This document shows positions 1 to 57,523 of a DNA stretch of 64,000 nt, piece after piece. The translations under genes were made by a program, and so were the position numbers. The stretch covers positions 93,062-157,061 of the forward strand of contig JACOYR010000001.1 of NCBI GenBank assembly GCA_016181765.1. The letters run 5' to 3'. Source of the stretch: Parcubacteria group bacterium (GTDB lineage Bacteria > Patescibacteriota > Patescibacteriia > UBA2169). The stretch's first letter is position 1. Every line of letters starts with the position of its first letter. The notes under the pieces are model-generated. The model saw only the letters and a list, made by a program, of their open reading frames with translations, had not been told where the DNA came from and did not search any database.

Positions 1-324
1 ATCTATCACCACCTGCGTGCCAAACACGTTGGTTTGGATGAACTCATGGCTTGAGTGGATGGAGCGGTCAACGTGCGACTCCGCCGCAAAGTGCACCACC
101 GCATCAACCCCTCCTGATGCGCCAGCGACCGCATCATAGTCGCACACATCGCCTTTTATGAAAGAGTACCGCTTGTCATCCTTAAACTCCTGCAGATTTT
201 CAAGGTTGCCCGCGTAGGTCAGCTTGTCAAAATTTAACACGCTATCTTCTGGATAGTTCTTGAGAATGTAGCGGATAAAGTTGGAGCCGATAAATCCAGC
301 TCCTCCGGTGACTAATAATTTCAT
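1..324 (-). CDS. rfbB: dTDP-glucose 4,6-dehydratase, N-terminal fragment truncated by the window edge
   Basis: My translation of the reverse complement of 1-324 is [44 protein letters not shown]...[25 protein letters not shown]. This shows the Rossmann GGAGFIGS motif and the conserved [10 protein letters not shown] block of the RfbB/RmlB family. Its ATG overlaps the stop of the downstream kinase gene (ATGA). Confidence 0.8.
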
Positions 325-1271
325 ACTAACGGGCTTTCCGCATTAAAATTCTTTTTGTACCGCTCCTTGAACTCCCGCATGGTAAAACAATGCTCCTGGG
401 TGCCATACTTCTCAACCGCATATGAGGCAATAGTTGCCGCGACCTGCCCGGTTTCCTTCCAGCTCCACTCGTTCATATACCCGGCCACGATTCCGGCGCG
501 AAACGCATCCCCGGCTCCGGTCGGATCAATCACCTCGCGAGGCTTTGCCGCCCCAATTTCCAAATCATAATCCAAGTCTTTTGAATAGATCACCGAGCCT
601 TGAGCCCCCTGCGTCACCATAACCACGGTTCCCTTGCTGGTGAGATCTTCCAGCTCCACACCCGCCTTCTCGCGGAACATCTGCCACTCGTAGTCGTTGA
701 AAATCGCGATTGCCGCGGTTTCGGCGCCGTACAAGAGCTCTTCTGTGGAAAGCGCGGTCATCTGCTGCCCGGGGTCAAACAAATACGGGATCTTGCGGTC
801 GCGCGCCTCTTTGCAGCGCTTGATGATTTCCTGCTTGGACGAAGCAGCCACCACCAGGAAATCGCCCCTGCCGAACTGCCTCGGAATGCCGGATTCGCCG
901 CCGCGGCCAAGCGCGCCCGGATAAAACGCGCTGATCTGGTTGTCGTCCAAATCAGTGATGATGGTAGCAACCGCCGTGTACTCATCCTCGTGGGTTGTGA
1001 TGTGGCTCGTGCCAATAGAAAGGCTCTTGAGGTACTCCGCGTACCTGCCGAAGTCCTTCCCAACGCTTCCGATGATGACTGGATCAAAACCCAGGAGCTT
1101 GAGGTTGTACGCGATATTGCCGGCCGTGCCCCCGAACTTTTCCTCCAGCCGCTCCAGCACAAACGACACATTCAGCATGTGGATTTTATCCGGAATGATG
1201 TGGTTCCGGAAGCGGTCGTTAAAATCCATGATCCGGTCGTACGCGAGCGATCCGGTTACCGCGATGTTCAT
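321..1271 (-). CDS. PfkB-family carbohydrate/nucleoside kinase (ribokinase-like)
   Basis: The 316 aa ORF has a Gly-rich N-terminal region and the C-terminal DPTGAGDAF anion-hole motif typical of PfkB kinases. Confidence 0.75.
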
Positions 1272-1320: not shown

Positions 1321-1728
1321 TTAGAGATTCTTCTTAATATCTTCCGCAACCTTTGCAAGCTCGCCTTGATTGGTCTGCGTGCCGTGCCACAGTTGATGCC
1401 CATCTCCGGCGAACCGCGGCATGATATGGAAGTGCGCGTGGAACACAATCTGTCCGGCTCCGGACCCGTTGTTTACGCCGAGGTTGAAGCTGTCAGCCCC
1501 AACGCCCGCAAGAACCGCGGGAGCGATTTTCTGGATGGCATTCATGAGTTTGGCGCCAAGCTCCGGGGGCATATCCAGCACATCTCTATGGTGCGCTTTG
1601 GGAATCACGAGCGTGTGCCCGGGATTTACTGGATTGATGTCCAAAAACGCAAGCACCTCTCTATCCTCATATACCTTATGAGACGGAATGTCTCCGGAAA
1701 CTATTTTGCAAAAAATGCAATCCTGCAT
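1321..1728 (-). CDS. HIT-family (histidine triad) nucleotide hydrolase
   Basis: The 135 aa ORF contains the HAHFHIMPR histidine-triad motif. Confidence 0.8.
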   Translation of the reverse strand: MQDCIFCKIVSGDIPSHKVYEDREVLAFLDINPVNPGHTLVIPKAHHRDVLDMPPELGAKLMNAIQKIAPAVLAGVGADSFNLGVNNGSGAGQIVFHAHFHIMPRFAGDGHQLWHGTQTNQGELAKVAEDIKKNL

Positions 1729-1772
1729 AATGATTTTCGTCTATAGTTTTTCCCTGTCCAGCCCTGCCCGTT

Positions 1773-1970
1773 TCAAACTGGAATTGGCTTATGGCGCTCG
1801 TGCAATGTCTCAATATAAACTTCAATAGCTTCACGAATATTCACCTTTGCCTGCTCCAAGGTATCTCCCTCTGAAATGCATCCAGGAAGGTCCGGGACTT
1901 CCACGGTATACCCGCCTTCTGTTTGAGACATACATACGGCTTCGTATCGTAATGATTTTATAGTATTCAT
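1773..1970 (-). CDS. HicB-like (UPF0150) antitoxin-domain protein, orphan
   Basis: The 65 aa ORF reads YTVEVPDLPGCISEGDTLEQAKVNIREAIEVY, which is characteristic of the HicB N-domain. No HicA partner is visible. The start overlaps the methyltransferase stop (ATGA). The region is low in GC. Confidence 0.55.
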   Translation of the reverse strand: MNTIKSLRYEAVCMSQTEGGYTVEVPDLPGCISEGDTLEQAKVNIREAIEVYIETLHERHKPIPV

Positions 1971-3151
1971 ATTCTAACGTTCGCGTATATCTGATGTTTT
2001 TCGGAGTATAGCGGAGCAAAATAGGGGTGGAGGCTTTTTTCTTTTTCCATTAAAAACAGGTACTCATGATGTTTGCTGTCGCTATGTATCCATTCATTTG
2101 TCCAGCGCATGCCACCCATAACATTTACTTTATAGTTAATCTCAACCACATTCAGCAGCTTCCCTGATTCATGCATTAAATCACTTAATTCTTGCTTCGT
2201 TGCTCTTCCGCCAGAACTATATGAAAGAAGAATGTAGCGAGATTTAGTTTCTTGGATAAGTTTTTTTAAGGCTTCCATGGCGATAAAAAATCCTTCTTCG
2301 TTTTTTCTAAATTCTTCAAATACGGAAGCGGAGAGTAAATCTCTTGTGTCTACTCTGCGATTGACCTTCCCGAACAATTCCGGTTTATCGTTTTTGATAA
2401 TGGTAGTCCAAATATGATAATAAGAAGCATATCTAACCCTGCTGGGGGGCATTTTTTCATTATTTGATCCGTACGGCGGGTCAAAATACGCAAGATCAAA
2501 TTCATTTTTTGATATGGTGTCAAAAATGTCCCCGCGAATTATGCGATGTTGTTTGTTAGTTTTAAATCTTTTTGGCAATTTTAAGAATAAATCATTGTGC
2601 GATCTTGGAGACCATTTTGCCAAATATGACACATAGTGGCCGAGCGTGCTGTCAACGGAATCAAGGGCATAAATCAAGCTTGTCAGAATAACGCATTTGT
2701 CTTCCCACCCTAAATTGAGTTTATCTATTTCATCTCTGATGGCATCTAGTTTCCTGGTATTTTTAGCTTGGAACGGTTTTTTGCCTTCATCTAATTCCGC
2801 GCCATAGTGTTTTGTGTACCAACCATCATATCCTTTTAGATTGTTTAAATGATCTAAAATTTCTTGGTAATACTTATCTTCTTTTTCTGATTTTAAGTAG
2901 CATGTGCCAAAAACTTCAGACCAAGCTGAAATATCGCTGACAGTCGTATTGTACCCAAGTTGAGCAAGCGCTTGTGACACTCTGGTCGTTCCGCTAAATC
3001 CATCAAGTATATTTTTTACTCCGTCAAGTTCGCTTAGAAGTTGGACAATATACGGCAATATTTTTAATTTTGACCCCGCATACTTAATCCCTTCTGTTTT
3101 GGGAACACTCAATTTTTTATTGCCGAAAATATCTATTTGCTGGCCGCTCAT
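1967..3151 (-). CDS. N6-adenine DNA methyltransferase, D12/Dam-like class, of a type II restriction-modification system
   Basis: The 394 aa ORF has an N-terminal FxGxG-like SAM-binding region (DGFSGTT) and the catalytic DPPY motif (FDPPYGS). It is ATGA-coupled to the upstream endonuclease gene. GC is about 38%, against more than 55% in flanking genes. Confidence 0.8.
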   Translation of the reverse strand: MSGQQIDIFGNKKLSVPKTEGIKYAGSKLKILPYIVQLLSELDGVKNILDGFSGTTRVSQALAQLGYNTTVSDISAWSEVFGTCYLKSEKEDKYYQEILDHLNNLKGYDGWYTKHYGAELDEGKKPFQAKNTRKLDAIRDEIDKLNLGWEDKCVILTSLIYALDSVDSTLGHYVSYLAKWSPRSHNDLFLKLPKRFKTNKQHRIIRGDIFDTISKNEFDLAYFDPPYGSNNEKMPPSRVRYASYYHIWTTIIKNDKPELFGKVNRRVDTRDLLSASVFEEFRKNEEGFFIAMEALKKLIQETKSRYILLSYSSGGRATKQELSDLMHESGKLLNVVEINYKVNVMGGMRWTNEWIHSDSKHHEYLFLMEKEKSLHPYFAPLYSEKHQIYANVRI

Positions 3152-4011
3152 AATTTTTTAAGCCTATCAATGTCTTTTTGCAAAATTTCATTTACTGCCT
3201 TATGGCCCTGTTCGGAACTGTTTAATGCAAGGCTGAATAACGTAACAAGCGTGTGATTATGCGAATAATCTATCCATCCGTTTGTCAGAGAATCAAAGTA
3301 ATCTACGGCATTTTTTGTGTGGGTCCAAAGTCCCCGCTGTAACGCATTGGCAGACGCTCCGCCGTATCTCACTTCGCATAGGTAACGGTTTTTTGAGTCA
3401 ACAAACATGTAAATTGGGTGCGAACGACCCTTGCCTGGAACAATATTGCCAGTCAAAAAATCGAATCTCTGCCCTTTTCCCACAAATATAATTCTTTTGG
3501 TCTTGGCCATCGCTTTTTTGTGGTCAAAAATCATTATATTACAACGTTGATTTTTTTCATCGTAAATCAATGGCATAATGTTTATAGCCCCAAATTCAGA
3601 AAATTCAGCTGATTCAAAAATGTTGGCTATGTGCGCAACGCCCTTAATCTCTGATCCGTGTTTTTGGAGAAATGGGAACATTTTTTGATTGCTGTCGGTG
3701 GATAGCTGGAGCGGCCCGTCGCCATAAGCTTTTAAGCTGACTGGAAATTTTGTTTTACTGACTTCGTTTATTATCATTATGTCTTCTTCGTGCTCTTTTG
3801 CCCGAAAAAGATCTTTGCCGACATGAATACTCTTAAAATCGTACATGAATTGATTAATAAATTCAGCCATGCCGATTTCCGCCAAATCGCCATGTGTTTT
3901 ATTGCCTATCAGCCGCATTGTAAAAATATTGGATAGTGTATTGACCACCAAATGACGATTTTTGCTTGCCAGTAGTTTGAACCGATTTTTAAAATCTTCG
4001 TAATTACTCAT
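3148..4011 (-). CDS. Putative type II restriction endonuclease (DpnII/MboI-like, probably GATC-specific)
   Basis: The 287 aa ORF lies immediately upstream of, and is translationally coupled to, the Dam-like methyltransferase. Its size and an RFDF...YLCEVRYGG region recall the DpnII/MboI family from memory, which is unverified. GC is low. Confidence 0.5.
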   Translation of the reverse strand: MSNYEDFKNRFKLLASKNRHLVVNTLSNIFTMRLIGNKTHGDLAEIGMAEFINQFMYDFKSIHVGKDLFRAKEHEEDIMIINEVSKTKFPVSLKAYGDGPLQLSTDSNQKMFPFLQKHGSEIKGVAHIANIFESAEFSEFGAINIMPLIYDEKNQRCNIMIFDHKKAMAKTKRIIFVGKGQRFDFLTGNIVPGKGRSHPIYMFVDSKNRYLCEVRYGGASANALQRGLWTHTKNAVDYFDSLTNGWIDYSHNHTLVTLFSLALNSSEQGHKAVNEILQKDIDRLKKL

Positions 4012-4472
4012 AATATCTTGTTATTAATTTTAAACGGCGCGCCAGGTTCCTGCTCCCAGCGTATCTCGTCAACCGCATCCTGCTTGCCCTCGCCTTTGTA
4101 GAGTTGATTCGGCAGATTGACGTAGTAGCCCGGCTCTTTTGAAATGCACTTATACCCGTGCACCACCCCAGGAGGCACCATAATCATGCACGGGTTGTCC
4201 TCGCCCACTTCCATGGTTGAAAGTTCCCGGTACCCAAGTCTTCCCTCGCGGTTCTCCCAGAGGTACATGCGGAAGTTCCCGGGACCCGTAAAAATAAAGC
4301 AGTCTGACTGCTCCTTGTGCTCGTGCGGCCCCCGCACGGCTCCGGGCTCGGTCTTTGAGATATATGCCATGCTCGGCTGGAAATCTGATTCATCATTCCG
4401 CCACGCCTCGCAGAGCCATCCGCGCTCATCAGAAAAGCGCTCCAATGGTTTGATGACAACGCCCTCTATCAT
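4008..4472 (-). CDS. rfbC: dTDP-4-dehydrorhamnose 3,5-epimerase (cupin)
   Basis: The 154 aa ORF shows RmlC-like motifs (ERGWLCEAWR; VVHGYKCISKEPGYYVNLPNQLY). Its stop overlaps the endonuclease ATG (ATGA). Confidence 0.85.
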   Translation of the reverse strand: MIEGVVIKPLERFSDERGWLCEAWRNDESDFQPSMAYISKTEPGAVRGPHEHKEQSDCFIFTGPGNFRMYLWENREGRLGYRELSTMEVGEDNPCMIMVPPGVVHGYKCISKEPGYYVNLPNQLYKGEGKQDAVDEIRWEQEPGAPFKINNKIL

Positions 4473-4666
4473 ACCCCTACTCTACCAGAATCAGGCGTAA
4501 AAAGCCAGATTGCGCCGGTTGCGATAAACACCGCGAGCGCTATGGCCGGATTGATGAAAAACGACACATATCCGTCCTTCAGCGTTTCCAAGAGGTATAG
4601 GATGAGCGTGAGGCTGCCTGATGCGCGGAACAGTTCTGTGTTGAGTTGTAGGATGAGTGGTTTCAT
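4469..4666 (-). CDS. Small hydrophobic protein (65 aa), hypothetical
   Basis: The ORF has 4-nt overlaps with both neighbours and one predicted transmembrane segment. No recognisable family. Confidence 0.35.
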   Translation of the reverse strand: MKPLILQLNTELFRASGSLTLILYLLETLKDGYVSFFINPAIALAVFIATGAIWLFTPDSGRVGV

Positions 4667-5475
4667 TTTTTAAGGCGCTTGAGTTGGTTGGCGACATACT
4701 CAACAAATCCATCCCAATCCAATGGGTCGCGCAAGAGCCGGATGGAAATGTCTGCGAGCACAATTTGCCCGTGCCCTTTGTTAAGCTCGGGCGCGGAAAT
4801 GAGAAAACTGATCTCATTGATGTACAGCTCAAAGTCGCTCCAATCATAGGTAACGCTAGCCTGGTACCAGCCATCTCCAAATGACTCGGGGGGCGTGTAT
4901 GTTGCCACCAGATAATTATATTGATTGATATCTGTGTTCACATTCATCACATCATGCTTGACATTCGCGGGAAGCGCATAGTTGTACGCAAGAACCGGCT
5001 CGCTCGGCGGCTGGGCAAGGAGCGCTGAAAGATTTGCGTAACGTTCTTGTTTTTGGCAAAACACCACCCCATCATACCGCTGGCACGGCCAATTGACGCC
5101 ATCAATGATTTTGTTCTGCAAGGGCTTCATCACAAATCCCCAAGATCCGCGCAGCTTGCGCGCCCCCAATTCCAAAATGGGCTGGGACTGATTCTGGAAC
5201 GCCATGGTGACCGTGACATGATTAAACTCGCGCGGCACCTTTGCGTCAAAGTACACGGGGTCTATGAAAAAACTCTGGTTATTATCATCCAAATCAATCA
5301 CCCGCTTCTCCGGATGGATGTCCGAAATCGGGGAAATGGCGCTCCCCTTCTTGTACTCAAGAACGAACTCGCCGCTCGGCACCAGGTTCTGGAAAAAGAG
5401 CCACCCTAAAAGCAAGCATGCCCCTCCCCACAGGACTGCCCGCCATGCAATGACAATACGTTGTTCGTGATTCAT
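4663..5475 (-). CDS. Hypothetical membrane-anchored protein (270 aa)
   Basis: N-terminal hydrophobic anchor (AVLWGGACLLLGWLFF) followed by an extracytoplasmic domain. No family recognised. Confidence 0.5.
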   Translation of the reverse strand: MNHEQRIVIAWRAVLWGGACLLLGWLFFQNLVPSGEFVLEYKKGSAISPISDIHPEKRVIDLDDNNQSFFIDPVYFDAKVPREFNHVTVTMAFQNQSQPILELGARKLRGSWGFVMKPLQNKIIDGVNWPCQRYDGVVFCQKQERYANLSALLAQPPSEPVLAYNYALPANVKHDVMNVNTDINQYNYLVATYTPPESFGDGWYQASVTYDWSDFELYINEISFLISAPELNKGHGQIVLADISIRLLRDPLDWDGFVEYVANQLKRLKK

Positions 5476-5584: not shown

Positions 5585-5812
5585 CTAAGCCGCCAAACGC
5601 AAAGACTTGGCAACGGGTTTCAGCACTTGTGACGCGTTCAGCACCTCCACGCCAATGGCGCGGCCAAATTTGTCCAGTTCAACGCTCACCCCGGGCGCGA
5701 CTTCCGCGAACTCCTCTTCCGCGCCGCGCTTAACCCCAAAGTAGAGCACGTCGCTCTCCTTGTCGTAGTATACGTTTTTCTTTGCAATGGATTGGTTCAT
5801 AATTTTTTCCAT
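5585..5812 (-). CDS. DUF2283-family small protein (putative antitoxin-like partner)
   Basis: The 75 aa ORF contains YYDKESDVLYFGV...GVSVELDKFGRAIGVEV, which is typical of DUF2283. It overlaps the upstream DUF4258-like ORF by 16 nt. Confidence 0.55.
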   Translation of the reverse strand: MEKIMNQSIAKKNVYYDKESDVLYFGVKRGAEEEFAEVAPGVSVELDKFGRAIGVEVLNASQVLKPVAKSLRLAA

Positions 5813-6081
5813 CTCCCGGATTTTATCCGGCTGTTCTTTTGGCCCGGCTTGAGCGGATGTATGGTGATGAGCCGCGCCTCTTTGGCTGTCTCGCGGTACA
5901 CCAGAGCCACTTCCCGCACCTTGCCCCGGTATGCAGTTTTGTTGATGGCGACCGACAGTTGGGTTATGGCGTCAGTGTATCGCTCGCTGGATGTTTGGTA
6001 TATGATGCGAGGCAGTTCATGGTGGATTGACCGCAGTTTTAATCGTAACTCCAAGTGTTTTGAATAGACCACCTCCCTCAT
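5797..6081 (-). CDS. DUF4258-family protein (putative toxin-like partner of DUF2283)
   Basis: The 94 aa ORF forms the canonical two-gene arrangement with DUF2283. The sequence assignment itself is tentative. Confidence 0.45.
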   Translation of the reverse strand: MREVVYSKHLELRLKLRSIHHELPRIIYQTSSERYTDAITQLSVAINKTAYRGKVREVALVYRETAKEARLITIHPLKPGQKNSRIKSGRWKKL

Positions 6082-6194: not shown

Positions 6195-6569
6195 TCAGCC
6201 GGGGAGCCACTCCCCCATCCCCCTCTTGGATGGCGCCTGCGTATCCCGGGAGTGCTGCTCGCCGCACTCGAAACCCGCCGCGAAAATCGTGGCAAGCAAG
6301 TCGGAGACCACAGGAGTCTCGCCGAGAACATCCAGAGCCAGGACTGCTTCGAGAGTCTCGTGCACGTGACCTTCCGAAACGGCGTTATTCCAGATTGCCG
6401 GAACCTCGAACCACCCGGTTACCGTCACCGAAACACCGGAACATTCACTCCACCAGCTGATGAAAGCCTCGCGGCTTTCAGCTGCCTCGCCGCTTACCAG
6501 CATGGAGAGGGGATCGTTCCAACTCCCTTCACCATGACTCTCCATAAAACGAACGAACGCATACTTCAT
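6195..6569 (-). CDS. Hypothetical acidic protein (124 aa)
   Basis: A strong AGGAGG ribosome-binding site lies 5-6 nt upstream of the ATG. The segment is GC-rich (about 60%), unlike its neighbours. No family recognised. Confidence 0.45.
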   Translation of the reverse strand: MKYAFVRFMESHGEGSWNDPLSMLVSGEAAESREAFISWWSECSGVSVTVTGWFEVPAIWNNAVSEGHVHETLEAVLALDVLGETPVVSDLLATIFAAGFECGEQHSRDTQAPSKRGMGEWLPG

Positions 6570-7596: not shown

Positions 7597-8052
7597 TCAT
7601 GCGGCAAGGACAAGCGCCTCTTGCCTCACGAGCAGAAACGACCAGCGCGGATCTAGGAACCACGCGTTGATGGCATCAACGGCTGTTTGGGGATCCGTCC
7701 CCGGAGGGAACAGCTCAAACCACGCGTCCAGGTTCGGCGGCTGCTTGAGCCGGAACCGCTTGTGCCGGATCGGCTCGGGGTCCCTGCGTCGTCCCCAGAG
7801 CAGGACCGGCCTGATCCGGGAACCTTCCAGCGGGTACTTGCGGGTCAGGTCATCCGCAATCCAGTCCCCCCGCCAGGCAAACACCATGTGGTGCCAGAGC
7901 TGGTGCGGCGTTTCCGGGATCAGCTCCGCATTGCCTTTCGGCCACCGGCGTGTGCCCCCCAAACAGCTCGGAAAGCGGTGGTGTACAGTAATGCGGTCCC
8001 CCCTCCACCGGTCCATGAAACCGGCTAGACTGCCGTTCACCCCAATATCCAA
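7597..8052 (-). CDS. Putative HNH-family endonuclease (151 aa)
   Basis: VHHRFPSCLGGTRRWPKGNAELIPETPHQLWHH matches the HH-x3-S-x-GG...N...H...H architecture of the HNH motif. The segment is GC-rich. Antisense ORFs here are Arg/Pro-rich shadows. Confidence 0.45.
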   Translation of the reverse strand: MDIGVNGSLAGFMDRWRGDRITVHHRFPSCLGGTRRWPKGNAELIPETPHQLWHHMVFAWRGDWIADDLTRKYPLEGSRIRPVLLWGRRRDPEPIRHKRFRLKQPPNLDAWFELFPPGTDPQTAVDAINAWFLDPRWSFLLVRQEALVLAA

Positions 8053-51599: not shown

Positions 51600-52659
51600 A
51601 GTGCTTTTTGGTAAGTAACATATCAGCAGCAATGTCCTTTACTGCCTGTTTCCCAAGCAACACGGAATAATAACGCGGCGGCAATCCAGTCCCCGGCCGT
51701 TTAATTCCGATGTTTGTCCGCGTAAAGCGCTCGCCTTTTTTTATAACGGCCGTCGTAACCAAACTTTTCCGTGCGTTTTTAATCATGGGGATTTCGCAGA
51801 CAACCGGCTTTTTTTGGGATGATCCAAGTATGGCCGGAGTTTCGTGGATCGCACTCACCATACAAGCAAATTCTTCCGGCTCAAGGGACGCGGCATGGTC
51901 CGGGCCCTCTGCCTGTTTGTCGAGGGTGAGATGTTTTTCGATAACACATGCCCCGAGTGCTGCCGCCATAATCGGCACATGGATGCCGAGCGTATGGTCG
52001 GAATACCCAACTAATACGCCTAATTCATGCATCATGGTTTGCATTGCCGCAAGATTAACATCGCCTAAAGGGCATGGATAGCTGGTTGTGCAATGTAAAG
52101 CAATAATCTTATCATTCCCCGCTTTCTTAATGCATTGAATGGCATCCTTAACTTCTTGTAAGGTCGACATTCCAGTTCCCAATATCATTGGTTTTTTAAA
52201 TTTAGCAGCATATTCCAAAACCGGTAAATTCGCAAGATCGCCGGAGCCTATTTTAAATGCTTTAACGCCGAGCCTTTGCAAAAAATCAACTGATGAGAAT
52301 CCACTTCCCGGGGTTGATAAAAATAGTATGCCGCGCTTTTTACAGCGTTTGATTATTTTTTCATAATACTCTTCTTTAAGCTCCAGCGGACGCAGCATTT
52401 CCAATTGGCTTTGCTTTTTACCGATATTTTTTTTCTGGTATGCAGCCATAGGAACGCTTGCAGTTGTCACTTCCGCGGCCTTAAACGTCTGGAACTTTAC
52501 AGCATCAGCGCCGGCAATGGCCGCGGCATCCACGAGCCGTAATGCCACATCAAGCTTTCCGTTGTGGTTGACCCCTGCCTCGGCAATAATAAAAGTAGGA
52601 TGGCCATATCCGACTTTTTTTCTTCCTATCTTGATAGTTTGTGCGCGTGCGTGCTTCAT
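51589..52659 (-). CDS. NeuB-family nonulosonic acid synthase, copy 2
   Basis: FIIAEAGVNHNG, KFQTF, GYSDHT and a C-terminal SAF domain. Confidence 0.8.
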   Translation of the reverse strand: MKHARAQTIKIGRKKVGYGHPTFIIAEAGVNHNGKLDVALRLVDAAAIAGADAVKFQTFKAAEVTTASVPMAAYQKKNIGKKQSQLEMLRPLELKEEYYEKIIKRCKKRGILFLSTPGSGFSSVDFLQRLGVKAFKIGSGDLANLPVLEYAAKFKKPMILGTGMSTLQEVKDAIQCIKKAGNDKIIALHCTTSYPCPLGDVNLAAMQTMMHELGVLVGYSDHTLGIHVPIMAAALGACVIEKHLTLDKQAEGPDHAASLEPEEFACMVSAIHETPAILGSSQKKPVVCEIPMIKNARKSLVTTAVIKKGERFTRTNIGIKRPGTGLPPRYYSVLLGKQAVKDIAADMLLTKKHYGK

Positions 52660-53660
52660 ACGGTAATTCGTTTTCCTGTTCGCGAACTTTCTTCTAAAGC
52701 AAACATGGTTTTAAGCAGTTGGCTGTTCTCTTTAAAAGTGTAAGGATATTCTCCTTGACTGTTAATAGCGTCCACGAAGATTTTAATTTCCTCATTATAC
52801 ATCTCTTCTTCGTTGACATAGCCTTTTTCTGGATGTCCTTTGGGCACGGAAATTATTTCGGTCTTTTTTGATTCCGCGTCATACACGCGAATCTCCGAAT
52901 CAAACCGCTCCCACTCAAGAATACCTTCCGAGCCCAACACGCGCAACGTCCGAAACGGCTTGCGGGAAATAACGTCGATCATAATATTTCCCCTAATCCC
53001 GTTTTCGTATTTGATATTTGCCATAAACATATCATCCGCCTCCATGTCCAGATCAGAAACTTTTTCCACGGATCCTGAAATTTCTGCAACAGCTGAACCC
53101 ATCAGCCAATTAAGCAAAATCAGCTCAAATGGAAGCATTTCGCGGCACGCGCCGGTTTCTTTTTTAGAAAAATACACCTCGCGATAATCCTCCCATGGGT
53201 GCCAATCCGGCAGGTACTGGCCCATATGATATTGAAACGCCAAAATTTTACCGATTCTGCCTTCTTCTAAAATATTTTTCATCATCTTAATCGGGGTATA
53301 AAAACGCATAGTACACGAAGGCGCTTTGATAATATCCAAATCCGCGGATTTAAAAATGTCTTCATAACCATCATCATTAACCGGATGCTCAACAAAAAAG
53401 TGTTTGTTATGCTTGAGCGCGAAACGGATGTAATCCCCGTGCGCCTCCGGAGATGTCGAAATAATCACCACATCAAAATCATCCGGGGAAATATCTTTAA
53501 AATCGGCAATGATTTTGATTCCGTATTTTGACTTTGCTTCCTCGTTCCGATCAGGGCGGATATCAAAGCCAACGATATCGCGCTCGTTGTTCGCGAGTAG
53601 GTTCCGAATCCTGCGTTTTCCCATGGACCCCAAGCCCACGATTAAAAATCTCAATTTCAT
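52656..53660 (-). CDS. Gfo/Idh/MocA-family oxidoreductase
   Basis: N-terminal Rossmann motif (LIVGLGSMGKRR) and a Gfo-type fold of this length. Confidence 0.7.
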   Translation of the reverse strand: MKLRFLIVGLGSMGKRRIRNLLANNERDIVGFDIRPDRNEEAKSKYGIKIIADFKDISPDDFDVVIISTSPEAHGDYIRFALKHNKHFFVEHPVNDDGYEDIFKSADLDIIKAPSCTMRFYTPIKMMKNILEEGRIGKILAFQYHMGQYLPDWHPWEDYREVYFSKKETGACREMLPFELILLNWLMGSAVAEISGSVEKVSDLDMEADDMFMANIKYENGIRGNIMIDVISRKPFRTLRVLGSEGILEWERFDSEIRVYDAESKKTEIISVPKGHPEKGYVNEEEMYNEEIKIFVDAINSQGEYPYTFKENSQLLKTMFALEESSRTGKRITV

Positions 53661-54373
53661 ATCCGTTTAATGCGCGCTTTAATGCTCTTTCTGTTCTTAA
53701 ACAAAAGTTCCGCGACCACCCAATCCTCCGGAGTATCCAAATCAACCGAACGCCACGCAGCGCAGACAACGGCCTTGGTGTGTTTGGTAACCACCTGTTT
53801 TTCTTTCAAAAGCGCCTTTACTTTAACAATATACACAAAACAACCATTCAATAAATATCCCTTAGGCCAATCTTGTGCGTTAGTTGACGGGTGTGCTGAT
53901 TTATTCGCCAGAACTATATTTTGCTTGCTGTCCAAATGGTACAACCGGGGATGCGTAGGGCATACAGTAAGCACGGTGGTTGCGTTTGAGTCCCGCATAA
54001 GCTTCCATGAGCGCGCAATATCTTCCATCTCGCGCAGCGGCGAGGTCGTCTGCAGAATCATAACGTGCGTGGGCTCGTACCCCTCTTCCTTTTTGAGCCA
54101 GGCAAGTAGGTACAAAATCGCATCCACGCCCTGCGACGTGTCCTGCGCCAGGCGCTTGGGCCGCAAAAACGGGGCCTCCGCACCGAGCTTTTTTGCCAAC
54201 GCGGCAATCTTCGGCGAATCCGTATCAACAATCACCCGATCGGCGAACTTCACTTTTCTTGCCTGCTCAATAGTGTACGCAATAAGCGGCCTGCCTAAAA
54301 ACGGGCGGATATTCTTACGCGGAATCCGCTTGGAGCCGTAGCGTGCCGGAATGATAATAAGTAGCTTATGCAT
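53657..54373 (-). CDS. CMP-nonulosonate synthetase (cytidylyltransferase), copy 2
   Basis: IIIPARYGSKRIPRKNI...GRPLI. Confidence 0.8.
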   Translation of the reverse strand: MHKLLIIIPARYGSKRIPRKNIRPFLGRPLIAYTIEQARKVKFADRVIVDTDSPKIAALAKKLGAEAPFLRPKRLAQDTSQGVDAILYLLAWLKKEEGYEPTHVMILQTTSPLREMEDIARSWKLMRDSNATTVLTVCPTHPRLYHLDSKQNIVLANKSAHPSTNAQDWPKGYLLNGCFVYIVKVKALLKEKQVVTKHTKAVVCAAWRSVDLDTPEDWVVAELLFKNRKSIKARIKRI

Positions 54374-56059
54374 GTTTGATAATCAATGTTGTATTAAGCA
54401 GCAACGCATCCAAACCGGAATTGGTGAATGTATGCCAGGCATCTTCCGCGTTTCGCACAATGGGCTCTCCGTGCAGATTGAACGACGTATTCAGCAGCGC
54501 GCCGATGCCCGTCTTCTTCTCAAAATCCCGGATCAGCCCGTAGTAGTCCGGATTTGCTTCCTGGGTCACCATCTGCGGGCGCACCGTAAAATCCGCCGGG
54601 TGAATGGCCGCGGCAAGGTGCTCCTGCCCGAGCGGCGTGGTGTCGAACGCTATGGTCATGTACGGCGATTCAATGCCTTTCGGGTTCATCAGATAGTCAT
54701 TGGCGCGGTAATCCAGAATACTTGGCGTAAACGGCATCCAGAAATCCCTGAATTTTATTTTCTCGTTTATCAGCCGGATATTGTCGTAATTGGAGGGATT
54801 GCAGAGAATGGAACGATTTCCAAGCGCGCGTGCGCCAAATTCCATTGGTCCAACGCACCGCGCAACCACCTTATTGTCCACCAACAAATCCGCAATAACG
54901 TCTGTTGAGGTATTTTCTATGACTGCATACGAATTTCTGATGTGATATTTCTCAATCAACGCGGCCACCTCATCATCCGGCAAAGAAAAACCCAGATAAC
55001 CGTGGGAAAGCGGATTAACGGCAATATTGCGCTCCACACACACTGAATACGCGGCCCCAATGGCTGTTGACTCATCTCCCCCGCTCGGCGGCACAAAAAA
55101 ATTTTTAAGTCGTGGTATGCCCGCAATCGCCTGGTTGGTTTTAACATTCATGGAAAGCCCGCCGCTGTACGCCAAACTATCAACCTCCAAATGGTCCAGA
55201 ATGTTTGTCATCCACTCGACAACTAGTTCATCAACCCATTTCTGGAGTCCGGCGGCAATGCCGTCAAAACGCATTCCCTCAAGCTTTTCCCTAAAATAAA
55301 AGTACAAATCAGGCGGCTTATTATACCATTTGAAATCAATTCCGTCAACTACCAAAGTCTCTTTAAAAACTTTATATGCCGGCTCCATAATATAATCTTT
55401 TGCATACGGCGCAAGCCCCATGACTTTATATTCGTGCTCAAACGGCTTCATGCCCAAAATAAGGGTTACATAGCGGTAAATGCGCGCAAGGTTGCACATG
55501 TTGATTCCGTGGACTTTCTCCAGTTTTCCGTTTTCCGCGCGCCAGATGGTTGCGTTCTCTCCGTCGCCCCAGCCGTCGGCAGTAACCACTGCCGCAGGAG
55601 TGGTTTTGTCGATATTGGAAGCGTAATACGCAAACGAAGCATGGCAACGATGATGGTTATCGTTTCCAGGAAACCTAAATCATAGTACTGGTTTTCAAGA
55701 TTTTGGAATCGGGGTTCCCGCATAATCTTCTCCCAAAACGTTGAGGGCTTTTTTTCTATCAGTAGCGGTTTCCAATGCTCATGCATTTCCCGGACATAAT
55801 CCGCAATTTTAAATGTGGTAATCCGTTTGATCTTAAAATCAATAGGGCTTAAGGGCAGCGCGGATGTGTACACCACATAATCAATATCAGGGCCGGCCAA
55901 ACCGGTTTCCGCAAGCGCCCGCCGGATAGTCTGGTGCGGATAGCCAACATCATTTTTCAAACGCGTAATGCGCTCCTCGGATGCGGCATACAGAACCCTG
56001 CCGTCTTTGATGAGGGCGGCGGTTGCGTTGTGATTTTCGTTGATTCCAAGGACAATCAT
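54366..56059 (-). pseudogene. NodU/CmcH-family carbamoyltransferase interrupted by a -1 frameshift, either a pseudogene or an assembly error
   Basis: The N-terminal ORF (55466-56059, MIVLGINENHNATAA...) and the C-terminal ORF (54366-55589) belong to one approximately 564 aa carbamoyltransferase. The HHRCHASFAYYAS motif lies in the C-frame upstream of its called start. The frames join near 55655-55672 at a short A/T run. Confidence 0.65.
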
Positions 56060-56089
56060 ATACTTGTTAGGATTGGTTTAATGAATTAA

Positions 56090-57523
56090 TTATGCCGGTA
56101 GGCGCTTCCGCGAGCCATCTTCTAATATTTCATCTAAATAATCAACCATTCTCCGGGAAGATTTCCCGTCTACTTTATAACAAAGTTTCTCGCGCAATAA
56201 TGCCCTTTCTTGCGCTTTGTGTGTCGGGTTGTGCAAGTAGCCGTCTATCGCTTCTTTTAATGCGGCTGGAGTGTCCACTTTTGTTGTTGCTTCTGTTTCT
56301 AATACCCAAGTAAAATGATCAGAATCATACATCGTTGAAGTAATGTCTTTCCCGTTTCTATCCCCATCCTCATAGACGCAACCAAAACCAATGTTTATGA
56401 TTGGCTTATCAAAACAGGCGGCATCTAGTGTTAGCGTAGAAGCGGCATTAATCATAATATCACAGTGATAAAGCGTATTAACAAAATCAATGATTTCTTC
56501 CTTGTCTGGATCCCACCTATCCGGCATAAAATCAACTATCCGGTAGTCGTCTACGGCAACTCCTTTTTTATTTCGTAATTTTTTAAAAATATCCATATAT
56601 GCGTTAGTGTAATGGGCTCGCACCACTAATTGGCAAGGTTTTGTTAATTCGTTATTTGTCATCCATCCATATATCATTTCCGCAACTTCGTGGTCGCGTG
56701 TCGCCCAAACGCCCTCGGAGCCGAAAAAAATTAATGGAAGCGCCGGATCCAGGCCTTTCTTTTTAAAATGTTCTTCGCGGCTTTTAATAATATCTTCCCG
56801 AACATACCAATCAAACTGAGGAATGCCAACAATACGCACTCTTCTGGCAGGAATATTCTGCAGGTAAACTCCGGCATCTCTTGATGGTTTGTTTGGAACA
56901 ATAAAATAATCCGGCAAAAATTGCATGTATCCCACTGTTATATTGTCCCAACTTTTTGGCATGGAAACTACCGGAATCCTTCTCCGTTTCGCTTCTTTTA
57001 TGAAACTGGTATCCAGGTAAGACACAAAAGATGTGGAAAGTGCTATATTCGGCTTATATGTATCAAAATAAAATTGAATTTGGGGATGTTTTTGCGCAAA
57101 AAACTTTTGTTCTATAAACCGGTATAAATGTTTTATAGTTGTACTTTTACTCATGAGTATTAAATAAAGGTAACGCAGCCAAGGGATAATTTTTGTCTGT
57201 TTCAAAAATTTTTTTGAGGCAAAACGGGTTTTGGCGTTTTCATTAAAATCAAACGCGGAATGTTTCGCTGATTTGCTTAAAAGCAGATACCTAAAACTAA
57301 ATTTCGTAAATATGCGGTGCAATCGTGTTGAAGCAACCTGAACCGGAACTAATGTTACCTGATCATCTTCAAATTCATCTTTCAAATACGCAGGTATCTT
57401 CTTGGCTGGAAAAAAAACAAAAACACTGTAACCCTTCTTTTTAAGCAAATCCAACACTCCGCAACGCAAAATGTTTCTGGTGATGAATGATCTGGTAATG
57501 GTGATAAAAATCGTTTTCCGCAT
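56090..57523 (-). CDS. Putative GT-B-like transferase (TagF-like or capsule-type), paralog 2
   Basis: It shares IPVVSMPKSWDN, FFGSEG and NAASTLTLDAA blocks with the ORF at 44163-45557. The start is the internal Met (MRKTIF). Confidence 0.45.
   Translation of the reverse strand: MRKTIFITITRSFITRNILRCGVLDLLKKKGYSVFVFFPAKKIPAYLKDEFEDDQVTLVPVQVASTRLHRIFTKFSFRYLLLSKSAKHSAFDFNENAKTRFASKKFLKQTKIIPWLRYLYLILMSKSTTIKHLYRFIEQKFFAQKHPQIQFYFDTYKPNIALSTSFVSYLDTSFIKEAKRRRIPVVSMPKSWDNITVGYMQFLPDYFIVPNKPSRDAGVYLQNIPARRVRIVGIPQFDWYVREDIIKSREEHFKKKGLDPALPLIFFGSEGVWATRDHEVAEMIYGWMTNNELTKPCQLVVRAHYTNAYMDIFKKLRNKKGVAVDDYRIVDFMPDRWDPDKEEIIDFVNTLYHCDIMINAASTLTLDAACFDKPIINIGFGCVYEDGDRNGKDITSTMYDSDHFTWVLETEATTKVDTPAALKEAIDGYLHNPTHKAQERALLREKLCYKVDGKSSRRMVDYLDEILEDGSRKRLPA

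Follow-up and report, generated by a model that had tools for sequence, protein, structure and literature searches.

A putative SspI-family restriction-modification cassette recently inserted into a sugar operon of a Parcubacteria genome

The 64,000 nucleotides analysed here (the window) come from a Parcubacteria group bacterium (GenBank assembly GCA_016181765.1, contig JACOYR010000001.1, positions 93,062 to 157,061). Between a gene for an RmlC-like cupin and a HIT-family gene they carry a low-GC island with a restriction-modification (R-M) gene pair, R and M, and the remnant of an antitoxin gene, hicB. The island is, by comparison with related genomes, a recent insertion of foreign DNA, and its R-M pair is best explained as a mobile cassette of the SspI family. 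Relative to the closest relative found, L081 (GCA_016177305.1), the extra segment covers 1730-4025 (2,296 bp) on the minus strand between the cupin and HIT genes. The open reading frames (ORFs) and other features of the locus are, from upstream to downstream:

4663-5475, minus strand: unknown protein, 270 aa (ORF call)
4469-4666, minus strand: unknown protein, 65 aa (ORF call)
4008-4472, minus strand: RmlC-like cupin, 154 aa, host gene (PF00908, 39.9 bits)
4012-4028, minus strand: left insertion junction, with about 15 nt of the truncated cassette leader (homology to the L086 and L088 cassettes starts at 4026-4028)
3148-4011, minus strand: R, putative SspI-family Type IIP restriction endonuclease, 287 aa, apparently intact (PADLOC PDLC03568, invariant residues)
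1967-3151, minus strand: M, full ORF, 394 aa (ORF call)
2036-3151, minus strand: M core, putative D12-class N6-adenine methyltransferase, residues 1-372 (PF02086, PADLOC PDLC03342)
1967-2035, minus strand: M read-through tail of 22 codons (SLHPYFAPLYSEKHQIYANVRI), ending at the TGA inside hicB's ATGA; its DNA is the cassette's 3' trailer
1773-1970, minus strand: hicB remnant, 65 aa (PF15919), host-resident and outside the cassette
1729-1772, minus strand: spacer left by loss of the hicB 3' end and hicA (alignment with L092 and L093)
1321-1728, minus strand: HIT-family gene, host gene (PF01230, 97.4 bits)
321-1271, minus strand: PfkB-family kinase gene (PF00294)
324-1, minus strand: RmlB N-terminus, first 108 codons (translation), with an ATGA overlap with the PfkB gene

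The island stands apart in composition. Segment 1730-4025 has a GC content of 0.386, against 0.510 for the window, and is the 2-kb stretch of lowest GC within it. By gene, R has a GC of 0.387, the M core 0.373 and hicB 0.434, compared with 0.540, 0.525 and 0.557 for the cupin, HIT and PfkB genes. At third codon positions (GC3) the island has 0.36-0.40 and its neighbouring genes 0.60-0.73. The preliminary description of this DNA had placed a foreign low-GC segment between the rmlC-like gene and the HIT gene, with adjacent genes for a nuclease and a D12-class DPPY N6-adenine methyltransferase, and had proposed a GC and codon profile as a check. These claims hold: the segment has 38.6% GC, and both GC and GC3 set it apart from its neighbours. 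The flanks had been put above 55% GC, which is right in direction and slightly too high in value, the measured range being 52-56%.

R is, judging from its homology, an SspI-family Type II endonuclease. It matches the PADLOC model REase_II PDLC03568, a Type II restriction endonuclease model derived from REBASE, over residues 3-286 of 287, i.e. in full length (E=3.4e-112). Its homologues in a public protein collection number 3,854, the best being 76-91% identical, and it is 79% identical to KKT24480.1/OGZ41788.1, metagenomic proteins carrying the name-based annotation 'SspI'. Neither Pfam nor NCBIfam gave a match for R, the DpnII family included, and R, M and the R-family profile found chance-level matches only among PDB sequences. 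The lack of relatives of R in Pfam and the PDB fits the place of SspI among the ORFan restriction endonucleases, where it was listed as a one-member family of 'Unknown superfamily' (Orlowski & Bujnicki 2008, PMC2441816). The DpnII/MboI-like identity first proposed for this nuclease was rejected, since no Pfam or NCBIfam family matches R and its homologues bear the SspI name.

The sequence of R appears to be maintained. A deep alignment of the family, reaching down to 28% identity, has G41, E45, G65, R70, S92, K94, Q102, T105, N222, Q225, R226, G227 and W229 invariant, and D77 and E213 nearly so; the R of the window is of full length with every family-invariant residue present. Its protein is 90-91% identical to the nearest relatives and its DNA about 84%, which argues for purifying selection. 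An AlphaFold2 model of R, computed from an alignment that included 50%-cluster representatives, reached a predicted local distance difference test (pLDDT) score of 92.9 and a predicted template modelling (pTM) score of 0.88; a shallow alignment (76-91% identity) gave a pLDDT of only 57 and was discarded. The model places E45 on a helix; D77 opens a strand, and the strand after it contains S92-x-K94. The weak top list of a Foldseek search with this model consists mostly of PD-(D/E)XK nucleases (Hjc, R.SwaI, the SPARDA nuclease domain, R.HinP1I, R.MspI, R.MvaI), and the predicted fold of R is likely a variant of this type.

M belongs to the D12 class of N6-adenine methyltransferases. It scores 72.9 bits against Pfam PF02086 (cut-off 22), matches the PADLOC model MTase_II PDLC03342 with E=2e-141, and carries DGFSG at residue 50 and DPPY at residue 224, in the alpha-type order. 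Against the Dam subfamily model TIGR00571 it reaches 16.6 bits, under the cut-off of 114.85. Of the Dam-class DPPY enzyme announced by the preliminary description, the D12 class and the DPPY motif thus stand and the Dam subfamily does not. Literature searches for 'M.SspI' gave no matches, and those for AATATT with methyltransferase returned unrelated papers only.

The two genes travel together. We compared 83 cassette loci, made up of 80 representative genomes with a homologue of R (59-87% identity) and three further close contexts, and in all 83 a homologue of M lies directly downstream of R on the same strand. The hosts include Patescibacteria, Gamma- and Deltaproteobacteria, Bacteroidota, Verrucomicrobiota, Planctomycetota and Chloroflexota. 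Cassette GC is below flank GC in nearly all of the loci, and the R/M ATGA overlap is found in most. Nucleotide homology of the window to other cassettes is restricted to 4028-2036. Of 75 other cassette loci, about 65 have a gap of 100-300 nt upstream of R, and in about 10 R starts at most 10 nt from an upstream ORF of the same strand. In the Patescibacteria clade (L001-L091), about half of the M genes have non-homologous tails of 15-38 aa past the terminal EYLFLMEK, the rest ending 0-3 residues after it; flanking DNA seems often to supply the stop codon of M there. Degraded cassettes also occur: in L048 (6001-6966) R is truncated at residue 247 and only fragments of M are left, and in L020 (2317-3429) the M gene is split.

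Comparison with related genomes gives the empty site. In L081 the cupin is 91% identical in amino acids, the flanks are 90-95% identical in nucleotides, the HIT gene is 95% identical in nucleotides, and the cupin stop codon is 1 nt from the HIT start. Homology between the window and L081 breaks at 4026 and picks up again at 1729, the segment 1730-4025 taking the place of 6 nt (GGATAA). The insertion is recent, since a relative so close in its flanks has the two genes 1 nt apart. The island thus directly follows the rmlC-like gene, as first described, and in the suggested comparison the closest relative has the cupin gene directly followed by the HIT gene, without an island. We rejected an assembly chimera: six contigs (L172-L177), separate assemblies of six sequencing runs, match 7501-1179 of the window at 99.97-100% and cover both junctions. 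The order is cupin-HIT-PfkB-RmlB-RmlD in L085 and cupin-Ham1-HIT-PfkB-NUDIX-RmlB-RmlD-RmlA in L082-84, again without the island. Since these relatives carry HIT and kinase there, both genes are native to the position. The preliminary description had rmlB kept from rmlC by the insert, the kinase and the HIT gene; rmlB does lie beyond both, but they are not extra separators.

The cupin itself is a weak RmlC match, at 39.9 bits against PF00908 (cut-off 27) and 23.2 bits against the rmlC model TIGR01221 (cut-off 155.75). RmlB, RmlD-like and RmlA-like genes stand a few genes downstream of it in relatives, and the dTDP-sugar context proposed earlier is reasonable. Judging from host-side homology, the cassette insert proper would extend from about 4025 to about 1978. 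It lacks an integrase or transposase, and its junctions offer only a few nt of possible microhomology. Searches of plasmids (PLSDB), phages (INPHARED) and IMG/VR viral contigs found no homologue of R and so pointed to no vehicle.

The junctions are where the preliminary description saw the foreign genes chained translationally into the host operon. The overlaps themselves are real: start and stop codons share an ATGA at cupin/R (4011), R/M (3151) and M/hicB (1970). They do so equally at two junctions upstream (4472, 4666) and at PfkB/RmlB (324). In fact, an overlap of exactly 4 nt is the commonest junction of the window: of its 47 pairs of neighbouring genes on one strand, 17 have it. The R/M overlap comes with the cassette. 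The outer ones arise from frames that run on. Cupin homologues are almost all 150 aa long, and that of the window has 154: its last five codons (NNKIL) and its stop come from inserted DNA, the stop being the TGA inside R's ATGAGT. Homologues of M end with EYLFLMEK plus 0-2 residues before a stop. That stop is absent from the window, where M reads on for 22 codons to the TGA inside hicB's ATGAAT. Since ATGA is the commonest junction, the R/M overlap belongs to the cassette and the outer ORFs run on into the next ATGA, the chaining would be mostly a by-product of insertion and genome compactness rather than evidence of design, and the claim that it is special mostly falls.

Both ends of the cassette seem to have been trimmed. 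The 65-nt trailer is colinear with L088 DNA about 157 nt downstream of M (local score 26; shuffles have mean 15.2 and sd 2.2), which points to a deletion of about 160 bp that took the stop of M. Upstream of R, the closest cassettes have in common a conserved leader, about 50 nt long (TATTCAnTGTATTATT...AAACATAAAACATT-ATG, with the -10-like TGTATTATT), located at 5940-6000 in L002, 4430-4482 in L086, 2460-2509 in L088 and 4951-5000 in L089. The native promoter or operator may lie in this leader, of which the window has only the proximal 15 nt or so (4012-4028), so that the cassette is probably reliant on read-through transcription from the host. A sequence scan found no terminator-like or strong promoter-like site in the cupin-R interval; a strong terminator lies upstream at 6147-6116, and a weak promoter-like site (TGGACA-16-GAAAAT, 1760-1733) stands just upstream of the HIT gene.

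The third gene of the island has another history. The HicB-like ORF matches PF15919 with 52.6 bits over profile positions 7-56 of 123, i.e. the N-terminal domain only, and PF21748 with 34.5 bits. Pfam finds no helix-turn-helix (HTH) or ribbon-helix-helix (RHH) domain in it, and 1729-2035 holds no ORF for HicA. In L092 and L093, two metagenomic relatives which have the same synteny, a HicB of 85-87 aa, 78-80% identical to that of the window, is followed by a HicA of 70 aa (PF07927, 61 bits in L092); the two genes occupy the interval from cupin to HIT, which contains no R-M genes. Aligned to these loci, the window misses about 290 nt, comprising the last 25 or so codons of hicB and all of hicA; 44 nt now separate the remnant from the HIT gene. 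We conclude from this alignment that hicB is the decaying antitoxin remnant of a resident hicBA pair. It is not part of the cassette, because it has the same host position in the cassette-free L092 and L093 and because none of the 83 cassette loci has a relative of it close to the R-M pair. The suggestion that this HicB without a HicA partner might be a remnant is thereby confirmed. The companion suggestion, a controller of the R-M system, is unsupported, and we rejected HicB both as a C protein, of the kind found in C-protein-controlled R-M systems, and as a cassette component, given the lack of HTH or RHH, the lack of conservation with the cassette and its presence in relatives without it. 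As a separate observation, an intergenic motif (CATCAGATATACGC..CGTTA) is repeated in L088 in three copies (4676-4705, 5802-5814 inverted, 6408-6445); two of them form an inverted pair flanking the hicBA genes, and the motif also lies directly upstream of the window's hicB remnant (2000-1975).

SspI is a Type IIP enzyme with the recognition sequence AATATT. Avoidance of this site was assessed by pooling carrier loci against controls, the window alone being uninformative. In 424 kb flanking cassettes with R at least 66% identical, the ratio of observed to expected (O/E) AATATT is 0.75 (z -4.8). Of the z values listed from the 64 palindromic hexamers, this one is the strongest, and the O/E is the lowest of the AT-only hexamers. 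Inside cassettes, O/E drops to 0.53 (z -5.8), whereas control contigs without cassette have 0.92-0.98. The predicted target of the system is thus probably AATATT and not GATC. The window does strongly avoid GATC, with 135 sites observed and 230 expected; in its host DNA the O/E is 0.55 (z -7) for GATC and 0.33 (z -7.4) for TCGA. Yet, island-free relatives (L081, L082, L085, L092, L093) are equally depleted (GATC O/E 0.55, TCGA 0.47). Hence, these depletions are unrelated to the cassette, and we rejected that of GATC as support for a GATC-specific system. Both are lineage-wide traits, perhaps left by past GATC- and TCGA-specific restriction systems.

We give a probability of about 0.8 to the following explanation: a mobile two-gene SspI-family Type IIP R-M cassette, with AATATT as predicted target, was recently acquired and inserted into the sugar operon next to a decaying hicBA. 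A fragment hardly larger than the R and M ORFs, with a leader of about 15 nt and a trailer of about 55 nt, would have entered by illegitimate recombination. It would have broken into the rmlC-like cupin gene at its final one or two codons, within a long co-directional cell-envelope sugar operon, at a point directly upstream of the resident and already decaying hicBA toxin-antitoxin module. The cupin frame would then have run five codons into the cassette, to halt at the TGA in R's ATGAGT, and the deletion of about 160 bp would have cost M its stop and added 22 codons up to the TGA in hicB's ATGAAT. With the upstream leader the likely promoter would be gone, so that R and M would most likely depend on read-through from the host operon for their transcription and on termination-reinitiation at the overlaps for their translation. 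M would methylate AATATT in the host and R would cut unmodified incoming DNA, HicB having no role in either.

Several results weigh against parts of this explanation. The host DNA of the window has no significant AATATT depletion (22 sites where 30 are expected, z -1.5; by shuffling, 26 against 21.5), which is expected as the cassette arrived recently, and which gives no positive support. The AATATT specificity draws on a database name, family membership and a modest depletion signal. For the nuclease fold, Foldseek returned nothing at E<=0.001 for the R model against the PDB, the best match having E=0.028. R and M contain AT-rich promoter-like sites (3560-3533, 2623-2594, 2566-2538) that could drive M-only or independent transcripts. 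Finally, we estimate that a read-through of M ending exactly on hicB's ATGA has a chance of about 10%, so that some selection for tight coupling is possible.

The picture drawn at the outset, of a GATC-specific DpnII/MboI-type nuclease with a Dam methylase and a HicB controller wired into the operon by translational coupling, now seems hardly credible. It accounts for the membership of M in the Pfam family of Dam, for the 135 GATC sites where 230 are expected, and for the three consecutive ATGA overlaps that join cupin, R, M and hicB. But M fails the Dam model by a wide gap (16.6 against 114.85 bits), R matches no Pfam family, DpnII included, and has SspI-named homologues, and the GATC ratio of 0.55 recurs in relatives without the island as a lineage trait. 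As for the controller, HicB has no HTH or RHH, is absent from the 83 cassette loci and occurs without R-M genes in L092 and L093. The overlaps are the default junction of this genome. A cassette that is decaying or domesticated, M serving as a solitary methylase and R being inactive or on its way out, is a different matter and one that we hold improbable. Lost leader and M stop, the degraded copies of L048 and L020 and the lack of AATATT avoidance in the host window all fit with it, and are set against a full-length R with all its invariant residues, the purifying selection implied by 90-91% protein and about 84% DNA identity, an M core with DGFSG and DPPY intact, and an identical sequence in six assemblies.

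Selection might instead have favoured the fusion itself. Under such an operon capture, the promoterless arrangement would be adaptive by tying R-M to the envelope-sugar operon, and a cell that lost the cassette would pay for it in polar effects on downstream genes. The loci with R at most 10 nt from an upstream ORF (about 10 of 75) and the non-homologous M tails in about half of the Patescibacteria-clade cassettes would agree with this, as would our estimate that both outer ATGA junctions arise by chance with a joint probability of a few percent. We nonetheless find it very improbable, for about 65 of 75 cassettes keep their upstream gap of 100-300 nt, overlaps of 4 nt are everywhere in compact Patescibacteria genomes, and the very recent insertion left little time for selection. 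One might also speculate that the promoterless cassette is an operon passenger expressed by ATGA reinitiation, that such 'operon-hitchhiking' is recurrent in the SspI family, as the tight upstream fusions and variable M tails might indicate, and that SspI has a PD-(D/E)XK fold with an E...D...SxK site. Taken together these propositions are rather doubtful. If hitchhiking were true, restriction would be coupled to operon expression, and polar effects would buffer the cassette against loss.

The cassette that we favour as an explanation has much in common with known systems. As in the SspI R-M system, R and an N6-adenine methyltransferase are encoded by separate genes and AATATT is depleted in carrier genomes; the likeness extends to the 79% identity of R with 'SspI'-named metagenomic proteins and its full-length match to a Type II endonuclease model. 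The copy in the window differs in that it lies in a Parcubacteria metagenome-assembled genome, lacks leader and M stop, and is fused into a host operon. R-M systems have been viewed as selfish mobile elements, and R-M gene complexes insert into operons. The island resembles such mobile complexes as a low-GC two-gene unit whose near-identical flanks occur with and without it, which carries neither integrase nor transposase and which is spread over many phyla. It is peculiar in its insertion within the last codons of a gene, in three ORFs chained by run-on and in unit limits that almost coincide with ORF ends. With Dam and DpnII it shares the Pfam D12 class, DPPY motif and alpha-type order of M, but M fails the Dam model, R is unrelated to DpnII/MboI and GATC depletion in the host is independent of the island. 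As in HicAB modules, the 65-aa ORF has a HicB N-terminal domain (UPF0150/HicB_lk_antitox) and homologues, 78-80% identical, that precede HicA; unlike them, it is an orphan remnant that lacks hicA, the last 25 or so hicB codons and any DNA-binding domain.

Other parts of the window deserve a brief mention. Just downstream of the strong terminator at 6147-6116, an overlapping pair of small genes (5585-6081, minus strand) encodes a DUF2283 protein of 75 aa and an unknown protein of 94 aa; the pair is kept in relatives L081-L083 and could be toxin-antitoxin-like. A 151-aa ORF without Pfam match (7597-8052, minus strand) lies in a high-GC patch (0.61-0.65 against a window mean of 0.51). Further low-GC stretches (0.34-0.45) at 52000-53700 and 56000-57500 hold surface-glycan genes (a NeuB-family synthase, a GFO/IDH/MocA oxidoreductase and a 484-aa glycerophosphotransferase-like protein), and resemble variable polysaccharide genes more than defence islands.

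An SspI-family cassette is an ordinary kind of mobile defence island, with little import beyond the host genome. The family itself has changed status: an ORFan with one member in 2008, it now has thousands of members over many phyla, and the confident predicted structure of R that now exists could settle the fold of SspI. The locus is also a caution against reading design into ATGA overlaps, since run-on ORFs can create apparent chaining. For the organism, it records at base-pair resolution the arrival of an R-M cassette in a streamlined Patescibacteria genome, with the empty site preserved in a sister genome.

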